From: a virus
Virus record (IMG/VR): IMGVR_UViG_3300000553_000005
Location: 64,001 to 128,000 of that record
DNA length: 64,000 nt
Strand: one strand, 5' to 3'
Shown here piece after piece: positions 5,699 through 60,052 of the stretch. The position numbers were made by a program, and so were the translations under genes. The first letter of the stretch is position 1; each line of letters begins with the position of its first letter. The notes below the pieces were generated by a model. The model was not told the DNA's origin and ran no database searches. It saw nothing but the letters and a program-made list of their open reading frames with translations.

Positions 5699-7123
5699 AT
5701 GAAGCTGAATTTGGGTTGCGGATTTAACCATTTAGAAGGATTTGTCAATGTAGATCAGCACCCTTCAACCGGTGCTGATTTCATTTGGAATCTTGAAACT
5801 CTCCCTTGGCCGTGGGAGGATAGCTCTGTAGAAGAAATTCAATTAACTCATGTTCTTGAGCATATTGGACAGCAAACAAATAAATACTTGGCTATCATTA
5901 AAGAAATCTATAGAGTTTGTGCCCCGGATGCTAGGGTTACTATTGAAGTCCCTCATCCTTTGCACCCCGATTACTTAGGTGATCCTACTCATTGTAGACC
6001 AGTGACTTATGAAAGTCTTCGTCTGTTTGATTTAGATTTTGCTGATATGCTTATTGCTCATCATAGCCCTGGAACCCCCTTAGCTAGGTTTATGAAAGTT
6101 GATCTTCAAGTAGTAGACCATTTACAATTTTTTGATTCAGACAGAGGGATTCTTCAAGTAAGCAGAATGATTTTGAGAGTTAAGAAGCCATTTAGGGAAT
6201 TACCAGAAGAAATTTCTATCTGTGAAATGAGTATGGGCCTAGGGGATATTTGCATGGCTTTGTGTGTAGCTAAAGCTCTGGCTCATAAAAATTACAAGAT
6301 ACATTTTGTTACGATACCTAAATGGCACGATCTTATCAAGGCTTGCCCACACGTTAGTTCCGTTAGTTCTAAACAGACTGCTAAGGATATTTATCTTTCC
6401 CCTGCTTGGTTCCAACTTCAAGCTGCCCATCAGGTAGACACTTTATTAAAAGCTTGCGGAGTGACTGATGTTTCTAACCATTTTAAATCTTTAGATTTAA
6501 ATATTTCCCCTTCTGTTCTTGAAAATATTCAAACAAGATTTCCTGGAAATAAAAGAATAGCCATTAATCCTGCTTGTAATACAGAGAATCGTAGGTGGCC
6601 TATTGAATATTGGAAAGAATTAGTTCGTTTACTTCAAACTTCAGGAATAGAAGTATGTTCTTTAGGGATGACATCTTGGTATGGAGTTAATAATTCTCAT
6701 CAATTTGAAGGAGTCACTAATGTTTTTGATCTCTCTACTTTTGAAGCTATAGCTTTTTTACGACAATGTAAAGTATTAGTTTCGGGAGATTCAGGTCCAA
6801 TTCAACTGGCCGGGGCTACTGATTGCGGTATTGTAGGATTATACTCAGTTGTCTCGTCCCAATGGAGGCTACCTTTCCGTCATGGAGAATTAGGATGGAA
6901 CGCTATTGGATTAAATTCTACCTGTCCTCATGCTCCCTGCTTCCCTAAATTAGTGAAGGATACAAATTTTTTATGGTCCAATGAAGCTCAAGCTTCTCTC
7001 AATTCTGGGGTATCTATGGGTGATCTTGTTAGAAATTGGTGCCCCAACGGTGCTATCACTTGTATGCAAGAAATTCCGGTATCTATGGTATATGATTCGG
7101 TTATGAAATTATGGAATACTTAA
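5699..7123 (+). CDS. class I SAM methyltransferase-like domain fused to a GT9 (heptosyltransferase-like) glycosyltransferase
   Basis: LNLGCG..VNVD..HVLEH..DPTH in the N-terminus; GLGD, RRWPIEYW and SGDSGPIQLA in the C-terminus. Confidence 0.8.
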   Translation: MKLNLGCGFNHLEGFVNVDQHPSTGADFIWNLETLPWPWEDSSVEEIQLTHVLEHIGQQTNKYLAIIKEIYRVCAPDARVTIEVPHPLHPDYLGDPTHCRPVTYESLRLFDLDFADMLIAHHSPGTPLARFMKVDLQVVDHLQFFDSDRGILQVSRMILRVKKPFRELPEEISICEMSMGLGDICMALCVAKALAHKNYKIHFVTIPKWHDLIKACPHVSSVSSKQTAKDIYLSPAWFQLQAAHQVDTLLKACGVTDVSNHFKSLDLNISPSVLENIQTRFPGNKRIAINPACNTENRRWPIEYWKELVRLLQTSGIEVCSLGMTSWYGVNNSHQFEGVTNVFDLSTFEAIAFLRQCKVLVSGDSGPIQLAGATDCGIVGLYSVVSSQWRLPFRHGELGWNAIGLNSTCPHAPCFPKLVKDTNFLWSNEAQASLNSGVSMGDLVRNWCPNGAITCMQEIPVSMVYDSVMKLWNT

Positions 7124-32080: not shown

Positions 32081-33103
32081 ATGAACAAGACAATTTCTAT
32101 CCATCCGGTGCCAGAGCTTATTTCTCAACCCGATGGATATTCGTGCGGAGCAACAGCCGCTAAGATGATGCTTAATGTATATGCTCCAGCTAATGACCTT
32201 ACGTTAGAAGAGGTCAAGCAGCTTTTCCTTACTAATCCTGCCACTGGGACAACCCATGAGGGTATGATTAACGGTTTGACTGCTTTGGAGATTCCTTACA
32301 CCCGTACCTTCCAGGCTGAAAAGCCGTTTGAACTGGTGGATGAAGCCCTTAAGCAAAACAAGCTCTTTCTCATGAGAACAGCTATTCATGGATGTAAGCA
32401 TTGGCTCCTAGTCTATGGTAAGGACAAGGAGAACTATCTTATTGCTGACCCCATGGGCCGCTATTGGGTTTGTTCCAAAGCTTTCATGGATGAGATTTGG
32501 GGCTGTCGAGAATATGATGGTTTCATCATTGAAAAGTCTTTTAACGATGAAACCGTTGAAATTCGCAAGATTGAACCCCATGAAGTTGATGAAGCTCTCC
32601 TTGATGCTGGTTTTGGTAGTTTCAAGGACAAGATTGGTGGCACTGCAAATGGGTTTTATAACTCTGTTATGTGGGCCATGGAAAGCCTTGATAATGCTTA
32701 TGTGGCTGTTTACAGGAACAGAATCATCGGTGGCTACTTCCTTGAATTCAACAAGATTGGTAGTTTCTATTTGAATGATTCAGGAGAAAACTACAAGGAT
32801 AAGGTTGGCATTCAAGGTGTCGCTCTTTTCCTTCTTCCAGAGTTTAGGGGCCAGGGAATCGGGGCGGCTCTAAGAGCTATTCCGGTTGAAATGGAGGGGG
32901 TGGATTATGTTTGGGGTATGCATCTCGCCAGTCTCAAGAATGTCAAGAATTGGGTCAAGTATGGCCGAAAGGTAATTTCCGGTAGTGAAGATGGGTTTGC
33001 TGTTACCCTGATGGACTTGAATGAACAAAGGAGAAAGAATGGCACCAAGACTGAAGAAAAATTGGAAAATAGTTTGCATAGCGGATACTCACACACAGCA
33101 TAA
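32081..33103 (+). CDS. C39-like cysteine peptidase fused to a GNAT acetyltransferase
   Basis: Q..YSCGATA, HW and IADP triad; PEFRGQGIG acetyl-CoA motif. Confidence 0.8.
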   Translation: MNKTISIHPVPELISQPDGYSCGATAAKMMLNVYAPANDLTLEEVKQLFLTNPATGTTHEGMINGLTALEIPYTRTFQAEKPFELVDEALKQNKLFLMRTAIHGCKHWLLVYGKDKENYLIADPMGRYWVCSKAFMDEIWGCREYDGFIIEKSFNDETVEIRKIEPHEVDEALLDAGFGSFKDKIGGTANGFYNSVMWAMESLDNAYVAVYRNRIIGGYFLEFNKIGSFYLNDSGENYKDKVGIQGVALFLLPEFRGQGIGAALRAIPVEMEGVDYVWGMHLASLKNVKNWVKYGRKVISGSEDGFAVTLMDLNEQRRKNGTKTEEKLENSLHSGYSHTA

Positions 33104-33755: not shown

Positions 33756-34337
33756 ATGTGTTATCCCGTAAGGAAGTATAAGAAGAAAGTAAAATTTCTC
33801 AGAAAGACTTTCTATAGCTGTGTTCAGAAATGGTTAGAAGACCATGACCCCATACAATTTGTGGTTAATCATGACCCCAAATCGTGTGGGGTCAACCCTG
33901 TTTGGAGAGAGAACGGAGGTATTATTAATGTCTCTAAATTTAAGGCTAGATTTACCGAAGAACAAATAGCTAAAAATGGACGATACTCATATTTTTATGC
34001 TCGTTTAACAGGTAGACACTTTGAGCTTGGGGAACCTATGATAGCCACAGACGTAGAGAGTTCCTATCTTTATGCTCGTTATATCCTACGTCACCCCTTT
34101 CCTCAGGCTGAAGAAAGAATCTCTCGTTTTGCAGATTGGAGCTACTATTACGCTAGAGATGTCATTAGAGGTCCATTTGAATTAGGAGAGTATGCGATAG
34201 CTAAAGAGCATCGTTGGGCTTTCTTATATGCTTTAAATGTCCTTTTATTATCATATGCTGAAGCATTGGTATGGGGCAAAGAGCATTTAAAGAAGTATGG
34301 TATTGAACTTGATGAAGATAATGAAGTTATTTTATGA
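33756..34337 (+). CDS. alpha-helical repeat protein (YxYA...F..GE..IA repeats)
   Basis: About four tandem ~25-aa repeats. Confidence 0.7.
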   Translation: MCYPVRKYKKKVKFLRKTFYSCVQKWLEDHDPIQFVVNHDPKSCGVNPVWRENGGIINVSKFKARFTEEQIAKNGRYSYFYARLTGRHFELGEPMIATDVESSYLYARYILRHPFPQAEERISRFADWSYYYARDVIRGPFELGEYAIAKEHRWAFLYALNVLLLSYAEALVWGKEHLKKYGIELDEDNEVIL

Positions 34338-35470
34338 AAATTGTAGATAGGAACATATTTCGCTCCTTACAGCAATATAAATTCCTAAAAGGGGAATTCA
34401 AGAAGCGTTTATCTGAAAAGAACCCTATTGGCTTCATTGGTTACACCGTTCCTTATGAAGAATTGGCAGAATACGGGATGCAGAATTATAGTTTTGCTGA
34501 GTATGACCCTGTTACAAGACAAAGGATTATGCCAGTCATTCTCACTCCTTCTGGACCCTTGAAAAAATTTTTAGAACATTTCTCTGAGGAGGACATTATT
34601 AAATCTCCTCAATGGGCTTATTCCTACGCTTATAATAGACCTGAACGTTGTTACACCCCAGGAAAAGGGTTTGATAGAGATGCTTGTGGCTGGCCCCCTG
34701 GTGAACCTATCATAGCTAGTGACCCTAGAATTGCTTACGCTTACGCATTTAATTGTTTAGGAGGAAGACCGTTTCCACTAGGGGAACCCGCTATAGCAAA
34801 AGCAGGGGGAGAGCTAGCTGAAAGATATGCCTCAAAGATACTAAAACTTCCTCATCCTCTTTGTGATGAATGGGCTGAAAAATACCTTAAAGGAGATTTC
34901 ATGGAGAAACAAGCATCAGGGGAAATGAGCCGTGGTAAGCTCATGGAAGCCCTTCAAGCTTTGAATGATGCCTTAGGTGAATGTGATATGAAGGCGCAGG
35001 TAACGGCTCTTGGTGGGGCCGCTATTCTTTTATCTTATGACGATTTCTCCCGCCCTGTAAAGGATGTGGATGTGTTCTATGATTATAAATCTTCAAGTCC
35101 AGATTTGGATGAGGAGATTATGAATGAGTTGATTAAGGAAGTTGGAGATAGAGTTCATGTTCATCACGAATGGATGAATAATGGAGTTCAACCTTACATC
35201 TGGCTTCCTAGCAATGTGACATATGATACCCCTGTAACCCTTCCAAATTTAACAGTTAGAGTTCCAAATCCTGAATATTTATTTGCTAATAAGTTAGATT
35301 CAGGTCGGAAAGAGGAGAAGGGAAACGACACTAAGGATGTTCGGTTCTTAATGTCTAAGCTAGGCTTTAAATCTCCAAAAGAAATTTTAGCAATGTATAA
35401 ACAATACTACCCGGATAAAAATCCTGGAACTTTTACCTTTGAAGAAGCGTGTCAGGCTATCCGTCAGTAA
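34334..35470 (+). CDS. repeat protein fused to a DUF6036-like nucleotidyltransferase
   Basis: Same repeats as the upstream gene; C-terminal LGGAA..., KDVDV, WMNN.V, YLFANKL, D..D. Confidence 0.7.
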   Translation: MKIVDRNIFRSLQQYKFLKGEFKKRLSEKNPIGFIGYTVPYEELAEYGMQNYSFAEYDPVTRQRIMPVILTPSGPLKKFLEHFSEEDIIKSPQWAYSYAYNRPERCYTPGKGFDRDACGWPPGEPIIASDPRIAYAYAFNCLGGRPFPLGEPAIAKAGGELAERYASKILKLPHPLCDEWAEKYLKGDFMEKQASGEMSRGKLMEALQALNDALGECDMKAQVTALGGAAILLSYDDFSRPVKDVDVFYDYKSSSPDLDEEIMNELIKEVGDRVHVHHEWMNNGVQPYIWLPSNVTYDTPVTLPNLTVRVPNPEYLFANKLDSGRKEEKGNDTKDVRFLMSKLGFKSPKEILAMYKQYYPDKNPGTFTFEEACQAIRQ

Positions 35471-35607: not shown

Positions 35608-35916
35608 TCACAAAGCATTAGAACCAGATTGGGATCCTTCTAAACCGGTTCGACTCTGATTACAAATATGATCACCAATTTGAACCACTCTACAAATTGT
35701 GGGGCGATTAGGATAAATAGAGCATCTCACTTCGGCTCCAAGAATTCCTTCAAGAGCGCAACAAATTCCATCAGTCATCTTCATAGCATAAGGAAGAATA
35801 TCTCCTTGTTGAAGCATATCTGGAGATATATGTTCGGCATCACTATTGGTAACTTCTACCCATTTAGGGTCAGGATTGGTGCAGCAAGCTCCACAGGAAG
35901 TACATGATAATGACAT
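35608..35916 (-). CDS. YkgJ/CxxCxxCC family Zn/Fe-S protein
   Basis: CTSCGACC...CCAL...CSIYPNRPTICR. Confidence 0.85.
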   Translation of the reverse strand: MSLSCTSCGACCTNPDPKWVEVTNSDAEHISPDMLQQGDILPYAMKMTDGICCALEGILGAEVRCSIYPNRPTICRVVQIGDHICNQSRTGLEGSQSGSNAL

Positions 35917-35919
35917 TTC

Positions 35920-36933
35920 TTATCCTAAAATAACGGTTTTATATGATACCCCGGCATTCATACACATTATGAGTCCCGCAGCTTCTAAATAATTTTCTAC
36001 AAAGACGACTTTCTTGTTCCCTCTGATCCCTTCAGGATAAGAGAAATTACTCTGACAAGTAGTGTTCTCCATTACGACTATGATAGGGATACCGTGATTT
36101 AGACAAGAGATATGAGGACTTCCCCAACAGTTATGGGGGGTTAGGAGGAAATCTATATCTTCATTAGATATATTCTTGGGATTTTTAATCAGATCAATCA
36201 GAGGACTTTGATGTAATCCCTTTAAAACACAAAAAAGATAAGTATTGGATATAATCTCTGGAGATTGAGAGGGTTTAACCACTACCTTGTTATAAAGATT
36301 ATCTTGAAGAAAATCCATTGGAGCATGAGCGACTGGTTTATCAATGGCTGAAGCAATATATTTACTAATTTGAGCTTCAATCGCTCCCCAAGGATTAACT
36401 GTAATATCTCCCTCCCAATAACTATTAGCAAGTTCTTCGTCACAATCAATAGTGGTGTGAATAGCCAAAGCATCAAAATCTTTATCTTTAATTTGTTCAA
36501 TAAGGGCTATTAAACCACTGGCAGATCCCCCCGCAGTTCCATCGTCATTTAGATGAGCTTTCATGATCAGGGGGGTAGTTAGTTCTAAAAGTTCAATCTC
36601 AGCCCCAAGGCCCCATATACCGGCATTAACCGCATTGATGCTACCTGGAGTAATAGGGGAATTTACTACACAGAGAATTTTGTTATGAGTTTTTACTGGT
36701 TTCAGATTGATTGAACCAGCTAAGAACCTATCAATGATGGAACCTTCGACATAAAGGCAATTGGGAGTTTGTTCGTTAATGTCCGAAGCATTACATAAAT
36801 TTGGATTCACCACTAATTTTTTACAGCATCCAGCTATAAGTTTCAATCCTGGATTAAAGGCTGCGTCACCACCTAAAGAACAGCCAAGGCCAGTGGGGAT
36901 AATCATCACACCGTTGATACTAGGTATAGGCAT
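35920..36933 (-). CDS. DUF3326-like protein
   Basis: IIPTGLGCSLGGDA, NPN..NA, LYVEG..IDRF, NPWG.IEA, PVAHAP, ENYLEAAG. Confidence 0.75.
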   Translation of the reverse strand: MPIPSINGVMIIPTGLGCSLGGDAAFNPGLKLIAGCCKKLVVNPNLCNASDINEQTPNCLYVEGSIIDRFLAGSINLKPVKTHNKILCVVNSPITPGSINAVNAGIWGLGAEIELLELTTPLIMKAHLNDDGTAGGSASGLIALIEQIKDKDFDALAIHTTIDCDEELANSYWEGDITVNPWGAIEAQISKYIASAIDKPVAHAPMDFLQDNLYNKVVVKPSQSPEIISNTYLFCVLKGLHQSPLIDLIKNPKNISNEDIDFLLTPHNCWGSPHISCLNHGIPIIVVMENTTCQSNFSYPEGIRGNKKVVFVENYLEAAGLIMCMNAGVSYKTVILG

Positions 36934-36935
36934 TG

Positions 36936-39900
36936 TTAATTTCTCACTATGTTATGTTCTGTTACTAAATTTCCACCCAAAGTTTTCAAAGCAAATGCCT
37001 TGGCTTTTTCTGGATCAAAATCCTTGCAAGAGAAGACGTTAATGAAAATTTTCTGAAGTTCATCCAAGGCATGAATAGTTATAGAAGATTCGTAAAGGAA
37101 CTGAACTACGCTGATTCCATCTTTCTTGGGATGGGTTTTGTAAGTTCCTTCAAACTTATCCTGGCCCCAACTGTAAATTGGTCCTCGCTGCATATCAATT
37201 TCATCACAGAGGTCTTCGGCAAACTTTTTCAAGATGTGGGTCTGGAATTTATCTGGGTCAACATCATGAAGATCCATAATAACCTCTTGGCCGTAATGCT
37301 CTTTCTTAGTTTCTTCAATAATTTCATCGCTATCATCGGCTACCTTTTTAATATAAGTAATGTAGCCCTGCTTGACACTGGCGGCTTTTGAATAGGGAGT
37401 GATGGCCGTAACCACTTCTACTTGCTTCTTACTACGAAGGCCCTGCATAGCCTTATCCCACAAATCTTTGTCCAGTTTGAAAGTTGTGCCTAAGTGGTAA
37501 ACTTGACCAAATTGGTCTTCTATATGTTTCTTAAAGCTTCTTAGTGGAGTCATCCCTGAGAGATTTTCTAAGATAAACTCTTGAAGTTCTTCGATGAACT
37601 GCTCTCTCGGATAGTATTTTTCCATGCCACCATAGGCTTGTTTGATTAGCAGACTCGCTTTTTTAACTGATAATTCTCTCAATTGTTGCTCCGTAATTTG
37701 CCTCGTGTCTAAAAGAACTTGAAGTGTTGCCTGATAGAATCCAGAGTCAATTCCCATAGTTTCATTTCTTATGGCTCTCTCGGCTATCTTTTCATCGTAC
37801 ATCTGGAAATGAGAATCTTCATCCATTCCTAATTTTTTCTGAATATAAGCCATGGTATCATCCATATCCTGCATATAGTAGGAAATGAAGCAGGATACAG
37901 CACAAAAAGAGCCTTTTTTATAATTAATTTCATTTCCCGCTGGTATAGCTTCATGGCAATCTTCACATTTTTGACAGAACCCACCCCTTACCAAAATTTT
38001 CTCACGTTCTGCCTCAAGATCATCATAACCATTGATGTTTAGTTGTTCCTCAATATAGGTTCTAGCTCTCCTCTTTTTATTTTCATCAGCATTCGGCAGA
38101 AACTTATCTATTAAACGATTTATCGCTGGTCGGAAATACTCCCTTACACAATAACTGCAACAATAGGGATTGCCAGATAAATAGATGGCATCTTCTTCTG
38201 CCACAGGCTCATCACAATTAGCACAATTGGTTAGCTCCTGATCTTCATGATCTTCATAGAGATCATTATCATTGTTAATATCCCAAGCACCAGGGAAGAT
38301 AATTTTTTGCTCCATCGATTCTTTAATCTTCGGATCAAATTCTGCAAGTGTTTCAAAAATCCACCAGTAATTTGAATCTACATCATATTTTTGCCCAACA
38401 TCAGCACTATCACTAAACGGATCCCTACTAAATATCTGATCTCCAATATTTCTACCATCTACATCTTGGCATTCAATAGCACCAACTCCTTGACCTTGAA
38501 TATTTTTGGTCGGGACTCGGATGAGTGCATAGCGATCAGAACCATAATGCTCATTGGTGCCACTGTCCTGAGTAATAACATAGAGAGGACCACGTTCCAG
38601 ATAGGCTTCAGCGGTCCCCTCCCCCTGTGTACACCAATGGGAACCTGTTGACATAAGCACCAAGGCTTCTGGAGTGGTACAACGATAGAAGGAGTAACCT
38701 CTGGTCTTAGCTAAAGGCTCACAACCATCTCTGAGATACTTATCCTTCTCTCTAATTAATTCTCTACCCTGCTCATTTTTGGATAGGTCGGCTCTAGTAG
38801 CCGTGTCATATATTTCTTTAAGATCTGAAAGACCTAACTTCATGATATCTTTTTCACCAGTAAAATTAGCACTACGTTTTAGCATAGCATAACGTTCAAG
38901 CATAATTTTAATATCATCTCGTTTCATTGTTCCGGCTAGCGAAGATCTACCTTCTGGATCATCCATAGCTTTTCTAGTCTCTCTACATAACCATTCTAAA
39001 TATTCTCCATTTTGAGAAGGGTCAACTAAAGATAGAGTATCTACCCCATGAGGAGGGAGATGATATTTAGAAGCAAGAGCTTTTTTCTTAGCTTCCGAAG
39101 CGGCGGCAAATTTCAATAGAGCAGATTTAAAGTTAGAAAGTGAAGATTTCTTCAGTTTTTCAGAAGGTTCAGAGGTAGGTTCCAGTTCATCTGTTGCTAT
39201 TTCACCCTCTATTTCTGGTGCTGATTCCTCTTGCACTTTGCCCATTCCACTATTTTCAATAATATCATCAATATCTGTACTCGTAGGGGTGAATTGGTCC
39301 TTAACATATTCTAGTATGTCATCGTAAAGCGTATCATAAGTCATCAGTTCATCATAAACCGGCTGAAGGACTTTCAAGGCCCATTTATAATCCCCTAGAG
39401 TTAATCCGGGGGTCACTTTTTCTACTCTGTCACTCTGCCCATTTTCAAAAGCTCTAATACCTGATGTCAGATTAGCTAAATACCAATCAAGAGCATAGTG
39501 ATGGTTAACAGTATTGGGGAGACCCATTCGGATAGCTGCTTCATGCATTGCTCTAAATACTTTGGTGGCCTTTGGATCCCAGCCTGTCCCATAAATGAGT
39601 TCCTCGGCATCATCCATAGCTTTTTGATTTCTTTCTTCTTTTCCTGGAATAGTTGCAACAAATGCCTTTACTTTTTTCTCAATTATATCATTATAAAACT
39701 CTTTAAAACATCCCTCGCAACAAAAATTATGGCTTTCTTTATCAGGGGAGTCATCATTATTCACATAAATAGTATCGTAGCTGTCTGTTTCCATATATGC
39801 ATCACATTGATCACATTTTTCAAAATGAGCCATATCATTAATATCATTAAAAATAAATCCTTCTCGGATATATCTTTCCAAATCCCTATCATAATTAGAC

Positions 39901-40646
39901 AACCATTGAACTATTCCCCACCATTCATCATTGACTTGATAACATTTATCTTCAATTTCCCAGTTTCCTATATCCTCACCATCTGCATCTTGAGCTTCAA
40001 ATCCTGTGACAGAATCATCCGGAACATGAATCTGAAGATAGCGATCTGATTCATAAGAACTTTCTTTTTCTTCTGTAGTAAAGACATAAATGGCTCCCCT
40101 ACTTAAATAACGTTGGGCATAGCCTGGGTTCTTAGTACACCAATGAGAACCTTCCCCCATCAATTGCACGGCTCTTACAGTAGTCGGCTCATAACATACG
40201 ACACCTTCACCTGGACTGCCGATCTCTTCACAGCCTTCTGCTAAATATTGTTTCCTTCTTCTCTGTAAATCTCTCTCTCGCTCTTTCTTAGAATAGTCAT
40301 CAGGAGAAGATTCTTGTATAACACTGATAAGATCGTTAAAATTGGCATAGGAAAGAATATTATTTTTGGGTTTACCATTAATCAAACCTGTAGCCCAGGC
40401 AGCACTATTTTTTAAACGTCCAAACTCCTCCAGAGCATCTTTTAATTCATCTTGAAGTGCTGGCCCCACATTTTCGTCATGTCTCAAGACTTTTACTAGC
40501 CATTCGGTATATTGACCGTTTGGAGTTGGATCTATATTCGCACAGATCTCTACGAATCCTTGGGAAACCAAATATTTTTTCTCCAGTGCCTCCTTCTTTG
40601 CCTGTGAAGCTGCGGCTAGAAGACTCAATAAAGTTGACTTGAACAT
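36936..40646 (-). CDS. 1236-aa polyprotein: two tandem PcfJ-like (HWCT) plus Zn-finger modules and a C-terminal S-adenosylmethionine decarboxylase-like domain
   Basis: Internal duplication (DP..NGxY.EWL, GSHWCT, SDRY, CxxC..CCxxC); C-terminal YGQEVIMDL..GISVVQFLYESSITIH..INVFSCKDFD. Confidence 0.8.
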   Translation of the reverse strand: MFKSTLLSLLAAASQAKKEALEKKYLVSQGFVEICANIDPTPNGQYTEWLVKVLRHDENVGPALQDELKDALEEFGRLKNSAAWATGLINGKPKNNILSYANFNDLISVIQESSPDDYSKKERERDLQRRRKQYLAEGCEEIGSPGEGVVCYEPTTVRAVQLMGEGSHWCTKNPGYAQRYLSRGAIYVFTTEEKESSYESDRYLQIHVPDDSVTGFEAQDADGEDIGNWEIEDKCYQVNDEWWGIVQWLSNYDRDLERYIREGFIFNDINDMAHFEKCDQCDAYMETDSYDTIYVNNDDSPDKESHNFCCEGCFKEFYNDIIEKKVKAFVATIPGKEERNQKAMDDAEELIYGTGWDPKATKVFRAMHEAAIRMGLPNTVNHHYALDWYLANLTSGIRAFENGQSDRVEKVTPGLTLGDYKWALKVLQPVYDELMTYDTLYDDILEYVKDQFTPTSTDIDDIIENSGMGKVQEESAPEIEGEIATDELEPTSEPSEKLKKSSLSNFKSALLKFAAASEAKKKALASKYHLPPHGVDTLSLVDPSQNGEYLEWLCRETRKAMDDPEGRSSLAGTMKRDDIKIMLERYAMLKRSANFTGEKDIMKLGLSDLKEIYDTATRADLSKNEQGRELIREKDKYLRDGCEPLAKTRGYSFYRCTTPEALVLMSTGSHWCTQGEGTAEAYLERGPLYVITQDSGTNEHYGSDRYALIRVPTKNIQGQGVGAIECQDVDGRNIGDQIFSRDPFSDSADVGQKYDVDSNYWWIFETLAEFDPKIKESMEQKIIFPGAWDINNDNDLYEDHEDQELTNCANCDEPVAEEDAIYLSGNPYCCSYCVREYFRPAINRLIDKFLPNADENKKRRARTYIEEQLNINGYDDLEAEREKILVRGGFCQKCEDCHEAIPAGNEINYKKGSFCAVSCFISYYMQDMDDTMAYIQKKLGMDEDSHFQMYDEKIAERAIRNETMGIDSGFYQATLQVLLDTRQITEQQLRELSVKKASLLIKQAYGGMEKYYPREQFIEELQEFILENLSGMTPLRSFKKHIEDQFGQVYHLGTTFKLDKDLWDKAMQGLRSKKQVEVVTAITPYSKAASVKQGYITYIKKVADDSDEIIEETKKEHYGQEVIMDLHDVDPDKFQTHILKKFAEDLCDEIDMQRGPIYSWGQDKFEGTYKTHPKKDGISVVQFLYESSITIHALDELQKIFINVFSCKDFDPEKAKAFALKTLGGNLVTEHNIVRN

Positions 40647-44365: not shown

Positions 44366-46957
44366 GTGGATTTGGCACAGTTGAAATCACATTTCCCTTT
44401 TCCTGAGATTCGACCATCTCAGGAAAAAGCTCTGGAAAAATTTGTAGTGGATGAAGAGAAGGGTAAGAAGTTTTCTATTTTTGAACTACCTACTGGTATT
44501 GGAAAGTGTTTCGCAAAAGGCACTCCCATCCTTATGTTTGATGGGGTAATCAAACCTGTAGAAGAAATTAAGGAAGGAGAGCTTGTAATGGGGCCTGACT
44601 CCACTCCTCGTAAGGTGATCAGTTTATCTCAAGGCAGAGATGAATTATTTAGGGTGACTCCAGTGAAAGGCGACTCTTTTGTAGTCAATTCCTCCCACAT
44701 TCTTTCTGTAAAAATGACCGAAAACCATAAACAAATTATTAACCTAACTTTGTCGGATTATTTGGCTAGAAGCAACAATTTTAAGCATCATGCTAAACTT
44801 TATCGAACTGGCGTAGATTTTGAGAGTGTATTAACACACGATTTAAAAGAACTTGCTTATTATATTGGATTATGGTTGGGGGATGGTTCTTCAAAAAGGT
44901 TGACTGAAGTTACTACTGCGGATAAAGAAATTCAAACCTATTTAAGCAATCTAGCTTCAAATTTTGGCCTTAGTTTGACTGCATATAACAATGGATCTAA
45001 GGCTACTTCTTGGAATATAACTACACAGGCTATGGGAGGTAGAAAAGATAGAAATATTTTATTAAACGAATTAAAGAAACTAGATATTTCTTCTAACAAG
45101 TCCATCCCTTTGTCTTTCAAAACCGCATCTAGAATTTCCAGACTTAAGTTACTCGCAGGTTATTTAGATGCTGATGGGAGTTTAGCCTCTAATACATTTG
45201 AATTTTCATCAGTTAATAAAAATTTAGCAGATGATATTTCATTTATAGCCCGTTCTCTTGGGTTCAGTGTGTATGTTAAACCTTGCCATAAAACTTGTCA
45301 AACAGGAAATGGGGGGGTTTACTATCGCGGGAATATAAGTGGGGATATCCATTTGATCCCAACTCTCCTCCCAAGAAAACAAGCAAAAATGAGACAGCAA
45401 AAAAAGAGTGTGCTTGTTACTGGTTTTAAAGTGGAACCTGTTGGACTAGGGGATTATTATGGTTTTGGTGTTGATGGGGACCACTTATTTCTTTTGGGGG
45501 ATTTTACAGTAGTTCACAATTCCGGTCTTTCTATTGCAGCTTTAGGGTGGGCTGCGGATTGTCCTGTTGAACCCCCCTTGAAACCTGGAGGAACGATCCT
45601 CACTTCTCAAAAGATTCTACAGGATCAATATGCGTCTGAATTTGGAAGTATTGGTCTAGCTGATCTTCGTGGTGCCTCTAACTACCGATGTGGGGAGCAG
45701 GAATCTAACTGTGAAATCGGCAGTGTTATGAATAAACTGGCTGGAACTATCTGTGAACATTGCCCTTACAGAAGTGCCAAGGCAGCTTTTATGGCTTCTC
45801 CCAGGGGTATTACTAATTTTGCCTATTATCTTACAGACTCAATGTTCAAGCGGCAACTACCGAAGCGTAAGCTCATAATTATTGATGAAGCGCATAATAC
45901 TGAAAATGTTTTGATCGCTTTTTCTGAAATTGGTATTTCAGCTAATCGTCTAGAAGAATTTGATATTAAACTTCCCACTAAACCACTTACTACTATTCCT
46001 GAAACTAAATATTGGGTAGAGCATACAGTTATTCAAGCCGCTGACATTTATGGAATTAAGTTAAAGGAAGAAATCGCTGCGGCTCTACAAGGACATGGAA
46101 GTTTGATGGCTTTGCTTAAGAAGGAAATGAATCTCTCCTCTTTCAAGAGTAACCTTGGTAAATTTCTAGAATCAGAGTCAGAGATGTGGTTTATTCATCA
46201 GACTGACGGTTTGGGTATCAAGCCGCTTCGTGGGGATGTTTTCTCTGAGGAACTTCTTTTTAGTCGGGCTGAAAAAATCATGTTCATGTCTGCTACCATT
46301 CTGGACCCTCGCACTTTTGTTCGCAATCTAGGAATTTCAGTCAAGGATTGTGGCTACATGAGTCTGCCTTCAGAATTTGCTCAAGATAACAGGAAAATCA
46401 TTTTCACCCCCGCTGGCTCTATGTCTTACAAAAATTATGACACCACTCTACCCAAGCTCCTCAACAAGATTGAGCGTATTTTGGAGAAGCATAAGAATGA
46501 AAAGGGAATTATTCATTGCCAATCGTTCAAGTTGATGAATCATATTCAACAGGGTTTAAGGAGAAGTCCTCATTACTCCAGATTGGTCGCACATGACTCC
46601 CAATCTCGCGCCTATGCAGTGGATAGGCACTTGACCTCAACAGAGCCTACGGTGCTTCTCAGCCCCTCTATGACCGAAGGTTTGGACCTTCGTGGGGATC
46701 TATCCAGGTTTCAGGTGGTAGCGAAAATGCCTTTCAATAACTTGGCAGACCCTTATGTAAAAAGAAGAATGGAGTTAGATAAAGCGTGGTATTCTTGGAC
46801 AACAGCCCTTACTCTCATTCAGGGTTTAGGTCGTTCCATCCGTTCTAAGGAAGACTATGCCAGGAGCTATATTATAGATCAGGATTTTAATATGTTTTTG
46901 AAAACCTGTAATGATATACTACCTGAATGGTGGCTAGAGTCAATTGAATTTCGCTAA
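44366..46957 (+). CDS. DinG/XPD-family helicase containing an intein
   Basis: R..Q, ELPTGIGK|S, Fe-S Cys cluster, DEAH, SAT, EGLD, QGLGR.IR. Confidence 0.92.
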   Translation: MDLAQLKSHFPFPEIRPSQEKALEKFVVDEEKGKKFSIFELPTGIGKCFAKGTPILMFDGVIKPVEEIKEGELVMGPDSTPRKVISLSQGRDELFRVTPVKGDSFVVNSSHILSVKMTENHKQIINLTLSDYLARSNNFKHHAKLYRTGVDFESVLTHDLKELAYYIGLWLGDGSSKRLTEVTTADKEIQTYLSNLASNFGLSLTAYNNGSKATSWNITTQAMGGRKDRNILLNELKKLDISSNKSIPLSFKTASRISRLKLLAGYLDADGSLASNTFEFSSVNKNLADDISFIARSLGFSVYVKPCHKTCQTGNGGVYYRGNISGDIHLIPTLLPRKQAKMRQQKKSVLVTGFKVEPVGLGDYYGFGVDGDHLFLLGDFTVVHNSGLSIAALGWAADCPVEPPLKPGGTILTSQKILQDQYASEFGSIGLADLRGASNYRCGEQESNCEIGSVMNKLAGTICEHCPYRSAKAAFMASPRGITNFAYYLTDSMFKRQLPKRKLIIIDEAHNTENVLIAFSEIGISANRLEEFDIKLPTKPLTTIPETKYWVEHTVIQAADIYGIKLKEEIAAALQGHGSLMALLKKEMNLSSFKSNLGKFLESESEMWFIHQTDGLGIKPLRGDVFSEELLFSRAEKIMFMSATILDPRTFVRNLGISVKDCGYMSLPSEFAQDNRKIIFTPAGSMSYKNYDTTLPKLLNKIERILEKHKNEKGIIHCQSFKLMNHIQQGLRRSPHYSRLVAHDSQSRAYAVDRHLTSTEPTVLLSPSMTEGLDLRGDLSRFQVVAKMPFNNLADPYVKRRMELDKAWYSWTTALTLIQGLGRSIRSKEDYARSYIIDQDFNMFLKTCNDILPEWWLESIEFR
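44507..45520 (+). mobile_element. 338-aa intein with LAGLIDADG homing endonuclease, inserted in Walker A
   Basis: N-terminal CFAKGT, C-terminal VVHN followed by Ser; GLWLGDG and LAGYLDADG blocks. Confidence 0.95.
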
Positions 46958-58148: not shown

Positions 58149-59764
58149 AATATATTAAATTCACCATCCTATATCCTATCCTAGCTATTTCTTACTGCTT
58201 AGGATGTCCTGGTATTTTCCTGGCTACTTCTGAAACTCTCAATCGTATTAAGGGAATTCACAATGAACAACGATGAACTAGGTAAATATCTTCAAGCTTA
58301 CAGGGCGGGGCATAGTTGGGAAGACCGTTTCCTAGCCCAGCAGATTGAGTTATTTCAAAAAGATCTCAAACATGGAGTTGGAGTTCTTGGCTTGGAATCC
58401 TCCACTTCTGAGGATGTTTACTTCGCTTCTCTTATGGGAATTAAACTCTAATGGATAATCGTATTATGGATATCAAACAATCCAGACCTTACGAACACTC
58501 TATTCTTAGTATTTCACTAGATACTTCAGGCTTTGACAATGAAGAGGTCGAAGCCGTTCTTTTTTATAAAGAGTATGAGGATCATCCAGATCATCATCAT
58601 ATTTGCCTAAACCGTGTCGAGGCTTACAAACTATTTGTATGGTTAGAGGATAATATGGATAAATTGACATAAAATAAACTAACAAAATGTTATAATGGAG
58701 GAACGTTATGCGTAAATTCATTATAACTTGCTTGGCAGTTCCATTTATTATATTTAAAGTAGCTTTTTTATATAAAGATGACTCTCATATTAAACATACT
58801 ATTGCTATATCACAGGCAGTTGAACCTACCTATCGAATTTCAGCGCAACTTAATCCTGATTTACGAATTAAAATTTCCGCTGCTCTTTCAGAAATAAACA
58901 GAGATGGAACTGTCACTCCCATATTTATTTTAAAGACCCCAACTTTTTGAGTATTGATTGTTTTAAAGGAGGGTATCAAATGACTGTCTGGAAATATTGT
59001 GAATGTGGTTGTCATGGCTACGAATGCGGCAAGTATTGGGCCTTTCATGATCTAAGAGGAGATAATCTTTTTCATCTCCATAGAGGACACGGCTGGATTA
59101 GTCCAAAATTGGGGGTTTTTCAAACTGTGGAAGATTGCACAAGACAAATCAGGATTATGGAAGGTCATGATGAAATTGATTTTGAATTGGCAACGATTGA
59201 ATATGACTATGCAATCCATCCCGAGGCCATGAAACGTATTCGCTTAATTGTCGATCAACTTAAGGAGAGGTCTATTGCATCCTGAAACCACTCATATCCA
59301 GCAAAATCTGAACTTAGAAGTGGCTCATGGGACTCTCACTAAGACTTATAATCTATGGATCAAGAATCGTTTTTTTCAACTAACTCAACGTGAACTTGAC
59401 ACGTTACACGATGTTCTTGATAAACATCGAACAAATGAGTCAATTGGCTAAATAAAACGCCTCAAAAATAATTTGCCCAACTTTTGAAAAAGTCCGGTAT
59501 ACTACAGTATCGGAGGCGTCACCCATGCTTTTCACCTATTCAAGCGTTGAACGGATGAATGAACTGGTCGAGAAGGCCAATAAATCGCTTCGCAAGATTG
59601 GAATTTCTGAAATCGTGATTGATAGTGTAAAGACTCGTAAGGTGCAGGTTGGCGAGAACGCTTTTCTGGAACCCATCTACAAGGGTGAAGGCTTCAGTGA
59701 GGCTGAACTTCGTGATCTTAGAAATTATTTTGATTTAGTCATCCAATGAATCAGTATTATCCAA

Positions 59765-60052
59765 AGAAGGCGGTTCTTAAGTCCTGAGAACCTGGAATCG
59801 CCAGTTGTGTGTGGGCCTCAGGAGTCCTATCACGAAAGAGCTTGGACAGGCAATGCTCTTGCACTACTGGCCCCGAAAGGGGCCTTTGGTGGTGATGACA
59901 GGTAGGCCAACAACTTCGGTTGTGAAATCCTGACAGTGGCGAAGAATTGACTGTCCAGAGCCAGTTCAGTCTTCCGGTGGTGGGAGGGTGCGCAACCGAC
60001 TGCCATTTACGAGCCGGGAGGGGGAAGGCGAAAGCTCTCCCCCTTCTTTTTT
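59765..60052 (+). ncRNA. ~280-nt multi-helix ncRNA with its own promoter motif and terminator
   Basis: GC-rich and non-coding; GGCCCC-GAAA-GGGGCC, ACAAC-TTCG-GTTGT, AAGAGC/GCTCTT, GGCCT/AGGCC; AGTATTA at 59753; terminal hairpin plus T run. Confidence 0.75.
60016..60052 (+). terminator. rho-independent terminator
   Basis: GGAGGGGGA..GC-GAAA-GC..TCCCCCTTC followed by T run. Confidence 0.8.

Follow-up and report, generated by a model that had tools for sequence, protein, structure and literature searches.

A duplicated-module phage protein fused in frame to a putative pyruvoyl decarboxylase of the AdoMetDC fold, the first member of a two-gene cassette with DUF3326

Small pyruvoyl enzymes of the S-adenosylmethionine decarboxylase (AdoMetDC) fold are carried by phages, and the class 1b homologues SpeDC, an ornithine decarboxylase, and SpeDA, an arginine decarboxylase, keep the Ser/His/Cys set of that fold, have no spermidine synthase partner and lack the proline of AdoMetDC (PMC9992855, PMC10407285). 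The Ser/His/Cys set recurs, and the proline appears to be missing, at the C-terminus of a 1236-amino acid (aa) protein, here designated P0001, encoded by a large open reading frame (ORF) within a 64,000-nt stretch of viral DNA, hereafter the window (positions 64,001 to 128,000 of the IMG/VR record IMGVR_UViG_3300000553_000005). Unlike SpeDC and SpeDA, the family of the P0001 domain is nearly always linked to a gene of the DUF3326 family, a pairing that the text of PMC9992855 and PMC10407285 does not mention, and in P0001 the domain closes a far larger protein. The source record is 139.8 kb long with an estimated completeness of 49%, thus indicating a jumbo phage.

Other described systems resemble the locus in part. 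In Burkholderia sensu lato, the genes for PavA and PavB, which act in the synthesis of the hydroxylated polyamine pavettamine, place a decarboxylase beside a DUF3326 protein as the cassette does. In PavA, however, the decarboxylase depends on pyridoxal 5'-phosphate (PLP) and is joined to a Rieske and a racemase-like domain, and the JmjC hydroxylase PavC completes the pathway, whereas no Rieske, racemase-like or JmjC partner is present at the P0001 locus. The SpeD1-SpeD2 fusions (PMC10407285), which are functional and self-processing, likewise hold an AdoMetDC-fold domain in a larger product, but they join two homologous decarboxylases in about 270-320 aa, while the partner in P0001 is an unrelated repeat protein of 1100 aa. 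Polyvalent proteins (Iyer et al. 2017, PMC5512222) are, like P0001, large multidomain phage proteins in which unrelated domains are joined; none of their hallmarks (zincin MPTase, ArdC-N, ART-PolyVal and others) was found in P0001, where Pfam finds AdoMet_dc alone, and PMC5512222 mentions neither decarboxylases nor polyamines nor PcfJ. Finally, protein EST35_0205 of the distant jumbo phage PA5oct shares the core domain of the P0001 modules but has a single module in 482 aa and no decarboxylase. Our literature search found no paper on a decarboxylase-DUF3326 pairing in phages or on the fusion described here.

The fusion of two unrelated units in P0001 is genuine and in-frame. A GAGG-type ribosome-binding site precedes the ATG of P0001, and the frame runs without interruption through the junction (...EETKKEHYGQEVIMDL...), where no in-frame ATG, GTG or TTG precedes the domain, the only candidate being a Met within the first strand of the domain itself. 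A protein identical to P0001 is present on 2 contigs, and the same in-frame join was found in P0002 and P0276 (1233 aa, 66% identical), carried by 4 contigs of up to 227 kb from other assemblies. On the contrary, the 1113-aa proteins of a third lineage, P0003 and two members of its cluster on 10 contigs, end 11 residues past the acidic stretch in front of the domain, and P0004, representing a fourth lineage, is entirely devoid of it. An earlier interpretation of this DNA (hereafter the sequence-only reading), whose coordinates for P0001 and its parts proved right within a few bases, had taken relatives with a stop before the domain as the sign of a sequencing artefact; P0003 does stop there, yet two lineages keep the fusion. 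Indeed, although the record is a metagenomic contig and a false long ORF might in principle arise in assembly or sequencing, the independent contigs, the continuous frame and the missing start codon make this extremely improbable, and the recurrence of the fused form in two diverged lineages shows that it is not an artefact.

The C-terminal domain (aa 1122-1235) matched the Pfam family AdoMet_dc (PF02675) with an E value of 2.7e-13 and 50.7 bits (53.6 in a second run; cut-off 25), as well as PHROG 3125. In the alignment with the Thermotoga maritima AdoMetDC (1TLU), Ser55, Glu62|Ser63, His68 and Cys83 correspond to Ser1179, Glu1186|Ser1187, His1192 and Cys1207 of P0001, and the Ser, His and Cys of the processing set are invariant in all 57 unique cassette homologues. 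The AdoMetDC pattern that the sequence-only reading had recognised at the C-terminus, with a Glu-Ser bond at the autocleavage position, is therefore confirmed by the profile match and by the intact Ser1187, His1192 and Cys1207. From these residues we infer that, after translation, P0001 would cleave itself at Glu1186|Ser1187, so that Ser1187 would be converted into the pyruvoyl cofactor and an alpha chain of 50 residues would remain bound, with no covalent link, to a beta chain of 1186 residues.

Judging from its sequence, the domain appears to be an atypical member of this fold, and not a bona fide AdoMetDC, by two measures. First, its score against the NCBIfam SpeD equivalog TIGR03330 was 34.5 bits, below the cut-off of 75.65. 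Second, a single proline is completely conserved among true AdoMetDCs according to PMC10407285; equating it, by our own mapping, with the Pro of H-T-W-P-E, the corresponding position in P0001 is Asp1195 (I-H-A-L-D-E), and across the cassette family it is Asp in 42, Glu in 7 and Pro in 5 of the 57 sequences. The Gln, Thr, Phe and Tyr near the processing site that are diagnostic for SpeDC were mapped by means of the text on Fig. S5 of PMC10407285. At the three of these positions that were counted, the DUF3326-linked family shares the Gln (55 of 57) and the Thr, which directly precedes the Ser (46 of 57), and partly the Tyr (27 of 57). No spermidine synthase was found above cut-off in the 139.8-kb record itself, at its estimated completeness of 49%, nor in five viral genomes with the cassette, of which three reach a completeness of at least 96%; the SpeE of the host could stand in for it. 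A free-standing cassette decarboxylase, searched against 50,697 phage records, retrieved only homologues with less than 29% identity, the P0001 domain likewise staying below 29% identity to every AdoMetDC homologue in those records, and neither the whole P0001 nor its decarboxylase domain had any DNA or protein match among the INPHARED phages.

The gene next to P0001 codes for a protein of the DUF3326 family, whose close homologues in metagenomes number over 2000. When IMG/VR was scanned for DUF3326 with an alignment as the query, 72 viral loci were retrieved, while single-sequence scans of viral contigs with the DUF3326 or the decarboxylase domain gave no matches. Counting as decarboxylase-bearing any locus with an ORF that matches the P0001 domain at E <= 1e-3, the decarboxylase is present in 65 of the 72 loci and absent from 7: it lies directly upstream on the same strand in 52, where the junction typically measures -4 to +3 nt, at up to 2 kb upstream in 11, some of which have an intervening GIY-YIG endonuclease, and is otherwise arranged in 2. 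Clustering of the neighbours across loci left the decarboxylase and DUF3326 as the only conserved genes, and the pair can thus be regarded as a mobile two-gene cassette. The arrangement of P0001 and DUF3326 conforms to it, being co-directional, with the decarboxylase upstream and a gap of 2 nt. The CxxCxxCC gene that follows DUF3326 was rejected as a further member, since no homologue occurs in the 72 loci.

The cassette decarboxylase is nearly always a free gene of 120-150 aa. Other N-terminally extended forms, unrelated in the added sequence, are found at viral loci L016, L026 and L037 (about 185 aa) and L080 (252 aa). At L017 (5140-6993) an independent fusion was observed: the protein has 617 aa and ends in a cassette decarboxylase 57% identical to that of P0001, and its first 480 residues have neither a Pfam match nor any relationship with the P0001 modules. 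As to the surroundings of the cassette, its two genes are parted by an inserted GIY-YIG homing endonuclease gene in the related viral contigs L021, L022 and L086 (approximately 6298-6993), and in some smaller contigs the cassette stands directly beside portal or large-terminase genes (L056:5191-7007, L036:6399-8813, L057:3648-5003).

The slot next to DUF3326 is also filled by other decarboxylases. Among cellular DUF3326 genes, the nearest (35-36% identity) come from metagenome-assembled genomes of Bdellovibrionales, and in three of the four Bdellovibrionota genomes having the family a PLP-dependent decarboxylase of the ornithine/arginine/diaminopimelate type precedes DUF3326, the two genes either overlapping by 4 nt or lying 3-28 nt apart. 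In the viral locus L075 (5967-8041), a pyruvoyl enzyme of the phosphatidylserine decarboxylase (PSD) family (PF02666, E 2.9e-26) overlaps DUF3326 by 4 nt. In Burkholderia, PavA, which carries a Lys/Orn-decarboxylase-like domain, and the DUF3326 protein PavB are both needed for the triamine intermediate of pavettamine (bioRxiv 10.64898/2026.06.12.731819). Three unrelated decarboxylase folds (AdoMetDC-like, PLP and PS_Dcarbxylase) hence occupy the same slot, which argues for a chemistry that decarboxylates an amino acid or a carboxylated amine and not S-adenosylmethionine (SAM).

The Bdellovibrionota loci L009 (2543-7047), L010 and L014 are organised as operons of Septu PtuA, PtuB, a PLP decarboxylase of the Orn/Arg type and DUF3326, the latter with an N-terminal extension of about 88 aa; in L009 the operon opens with PtuA (E 1e-55) and PtuB (E 2e-52). 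At locus L085 (5164-6414), a long-form DUF3326 is preceded, at a distance of about 340 nt, by an amino-acid dehydrogenase of the Glu/Leu/Phe/Val type in place of a decarboxylase.

These data bear on the proposal of the sequence-only reading that P0001 delivers a SAM-depleting or polyamine-making enzyme. A true AdoMetDC destroying SAM, and thereby disarming SAM-dependent defences, would be in keeping with the fold and the catalytic set of the domain and with the existence of bona fide AdoMetDCs in phages (PMC9992855). What speaks against it, however, are the score and the replaced proline reported above and the near-obligate pairing with DUF3326, which elsewhere stands beside decarboxylases of the PLP or PSD type, for which SAM is no substrate; moreover, we reason that decarboxylation is stoichiometric and would be slow when compared with a SAM lyase. 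SAM depletion is accordingly a poor candidate to which we give little credit. The polyamine-making half of the proposal fits the DUF3326 pairing, and a role in making an amine would appear the likelier of the two on account of the PLP- and PSD-type partners of DUF3326, the missing proline and the sub-threshold SpeD score. In this role, the enzyme and DUF3326 would together act on a basic amino acid or a carboxylated amine intermediate, whose decarboxylation would yield a polyamine-like amine and not decarboxylated SAM.

The first unit of P0001 is built on a duplication: aa 1-504 and 505-1115 align with 29% identity over about 390 columns (E 7e-40). Both modules carry all the motifs listed by the sequence-only reading (FKSxLL..AAASxAKKxAL, DPxxNGxYxEWL, GSHWCT, SDRY and CxxC...CCxxC), arranged as AAASxAKKxAL..KY, then DPxxNGxYxEWL, an alpha/beta core with W-C-T and a CxxC...(F/Y)CCxxC ribbon, a ribbon type that in relatives matches Pfam zf-FCS. 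The core cysteine is Cys170 in module 1 and Cys672 in module 2; W169, C170 and T171 are invariant in seven of seven modules, with W-C near-invariant across the family. A profile built on the modules located them at aa 2-327 and 503-847 and also placed a third Cys-rich ribbon, as a ribbon alone, after the two full modules. The AlphaFold2 model of module 1 had a predicted local distance difference test (pLDDT) score of 81.6, and searches of its fold in the PDB returned weak resemblances of the core to GNAT (Z about 5) and of the N-terminus to UBA (Z 5-6), none of them convincing.

The sequence-only reading also took P0001 to be proteolytically processed, for which the repeated AAASxAKKxAL motif might serve as a leader. 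A phage protease acting there would release two module proteins and a free decarboxylase, and the motif does start each module and lies at the N-terminus of single-module relatives, with an acidic linker lying before module 2. Head proteins of jumbo phages are often processed. Nevertheless, in the model the motif is helix 1 of the three-helix N-terminal part (pLDDT 85-93), namely a structural element and not an obviously exposed site, and it forms the extreme N-terminus in single-module relatives; neither a cleavage consensus nor a link to a protease was found, and no such motif precedes the decarboxylase domain. Proteolytic processing of this kind is thus unsupported, and a polyprotein organisation seems to us unlikely, although slightly less so than SAM depletion. 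Late expression, which the sequence-only reading had also proposed, is likewise unsupported.

The module belongs to a widespread phage family. Its profile retrieved 3619 proteins at E <= 1e-3, 767 of them at E <= 1e-10, from 1.84 billion representatives, with a conserved core of about 190 residues running from D-P-T through W-C-T to Y-L..G-P-L-Y, for which Pfam holds no model. The core occurs singly or as two or three tandem copies, as in a 1562-aa protein of locus L004, and several copies are found per jumbo-phage genome. Among 35 diverse members, ART-PolyVal accompanies the module in 5, and PARP, GNAT, NT5C, cREC_REC and ParB_N were also detected, a domain company that, as far as domain content tells, is of the polyvalent-protein style. 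Foldseek against viral models matched uncharacterised phage proteins (E 1e-8 to 1e-4) and, in BFVD, several proteins named PcfJ-like (E 7e-5 to 1e-2, TM about 0.2); PcfJ was also the nearest named cluster in the Atlas (33% of members, score 0.89). A PcfJ identity was kept as a lead only, since it was confirmed neither by the Pfam profile PF14284 (PcfJ-like), with no match at E <= 1 in P0001 or its own genome, nor by hhalign against one true PcfJ protein (probability 6.5%). No decarboxylase or DUF3326 gene lies near the module-bearing relatives in viral and metagenome contigs, thus indicating that the module and the decarboxylase units are not generally linked. Paralogues of the N-terminal part of the module, without Pfam families, were also observed in the same genome outside the window, in a 1078-aa ORF, a 394-aa ORF and an ORF cut at the contig end (G000:C1:54820-58056, 58612-59796 and 139346-139807).

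With respect to the virion, the relevant homologue is EST35_0205 of PA5oct (QCG76086.1), matched by the module profile at E 1.9e-29 and by Foldseek at E 5e-8, and annotated as 'structural protein, ESI-MS/MS', i.e., detected in PA5oct virions (PMC7318152). The sequence-only reading had suggested that P0001 is possibly injected, which receives indirect support, by analogy, from this virion-annotated homologue. In PA5oct, EST35_0205 stands in a row of genes for virion proteins, each about 480-530 aa long and found by mass spectrometry (MK797984.1:123795-137728), and it is the sole match to the module profile among them.

Taken together, these observations lead us to favour, as moderately probable, an explanation in which P0001 is a repeat protein fused to a captured cassette decarboxylase that makes a polyamine-like amine and is perhaps packaged. 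The first unit (aa 1-1105) consists of the tandem-duplicated, phage-specific module followed by the third ribbon and the conserved tail, and the second (aa 1117-1236) would derive from the first gene of the cassette, which lost its own start and was captured by the gene upstream. The fusion would then tether the enzyme to a virion-associated family, so that it may enter the particle and be present when infection starts.

Several points weigh against this explanation. P0001 itself keeps only one of the four SpeDC diagnostic residues, as these are given in the Fig. S5 text: Gln1182 is retained, whereas Thr is replaced by Glu, Phe by Ala and Tyr by Phe, and the Glu that directly precedes Ser1187 is thus unlike the usual Thr of the family. 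The DUF3326 model (pLDDT 87.9) matched generic Rossmann-like folds, with glycosyltransferase, epimerase, saccharopine dehydrogenase and racemase tied at Z 8-9.4. As for packaging, the analogy that speaks for it comes from one homologue in a distant phage, PA5oct. P0001, the DUF3326 gene and the CxxCxxCC gene form a minus-strand islet surrounded by plus-strand, non-structural genes. Lastly, the sister lineage of P0003 does without the domain and free-standing decarboxylases are the rule, and therefore the fusion could be neutral. The stop and the start between two adjacent genes would in this case have been lost, and the product, whose beta chain has a free N-terminus, would for that reason have been tolerated, the tether bringing no advantage; the unrelated N-terminal extensions of other cassette decarboxylases agree with it. 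On the other side, the fusion persists in two lineages (P0001 versus P0002/P0276) whose identity is 62% across the first 1100 residues but 95% across the final 130, a split that points to selection on the fused product or to a recent exchange of the 3' end. We thus consider a neutral fusion a possible but doubtful alternative to the tethered, amine-making enzyme, and one clearly ahead of the polyprotein and SAM-depletion proposals.

An extension of the favoured explanation, which we advance as a long shot, would see the fusion as a delivery device, the packaged enzyme entering with the DNA and its amine serving in counter-defence or as a mimic of a Septu-type defence signal. The amine would in such a case be of the same kind as that of the bacterial PtuA-PtuB-decarboxylase-DUF3326 operons and would act from the first minute.

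Table 1. Features of P0001 and of the adjacent genes, in window coordinates.
Feature	Position	Strand	Remarks
ORF P0001 (1236 aa), stop codon included	36936..40646	-	single open frame
Module 1 (aa 1-327): three-helix N-terminal part, alpha/beta core with GSHWCT, FCS-type zinc ribbon	39666..40646	-	
GSHWCT of module 1, including Cys170	40131..40151	-	conserved among modules
Zinc ribbon 1 (CxxC ... FCCxxC, aa 278-318), FCS/MYM-like type	39693..39815	-	zf-FCS matches on relatives
Linker between the halves (aa 466-502), acidic, poorly conserved	39141..39251	-	32% identity to P0002
Module 2 (aa 503-847), paralogue of module 1	38106..39140	-	self-alignment and module profile
GSHWCT of module 2	38625-38645	-	
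Zinc ribbon 2, in module 2	38127-38225	-	
Zinc ribbon 3, isolated (aa 860-931)	37854..38069	-	module profile domain 3, i-E 0.0012
Region aa 932-1105	37332..37853	-	shared with P0002 and P0003 and, in part, with P0004; no Pfam family
Acidic pre-segment (aa 1106-1116) and AdoMetDC-fold pyruvoyl decarboxylase domain (aa 1117-1236)	36939..37331	-	
Ser1187 codon, predicted pyruvoyl precursor	37086..37088	-	alignment to T. maritima; Ser/His/Cys invariant in 57/57
DUF3326 gene	35920..36933	-	PF11805, E 7.5e-54; start 2 nt past the P0001 stop
CxxCxxCC (YkgJ-like) gene	35608..35916	-	3 nt downstream of DUF3326

In the vicinity of the islet, just downstream of it, two plus-strand genes code for a C39-peptidase-like protein that also matches GNAT weakly (32081-33103) and for a protein with an AbiEii-type nucleotidyltransferase region (34334-35470), while further along the window a DEAD_2/Helicase_C_2 helicase is split by an intein with Hint and LAGLIDADG homing endonuclease domains (44366-46957, plus strand). 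PADLOC retrieved no defence-system match among the proteins of the window, and a scan for promoters and terminators found sites in numbers no higher than chance.

The novelty of this locus is a decarboxylase captured by a repeat protein of a virion-associated family and conserved as such in two diverged phage lineages. Phage AdoMetDC homologues have so far been known as free auxiliary metabolic enzymes; if the enzyme is made solely as the tail of the 1236-aa protein, P0001 would offer the first hint of a particle protein that carries an enzyme of small-molecule biosynthesis. Moreover, it provides a clean phage case of the unpublished pairing of a decarboxylase with DUF3326, and the occurrence of three folds in one slot suggests a testable two-enzyme route to an amine, found in Septu defence operons and in many phages. 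The W-C-T module, in turn, represents a large unnamed family of phage domains, with a near-invariant Trp-Cys and a membership in the thousands, that deserves curation.

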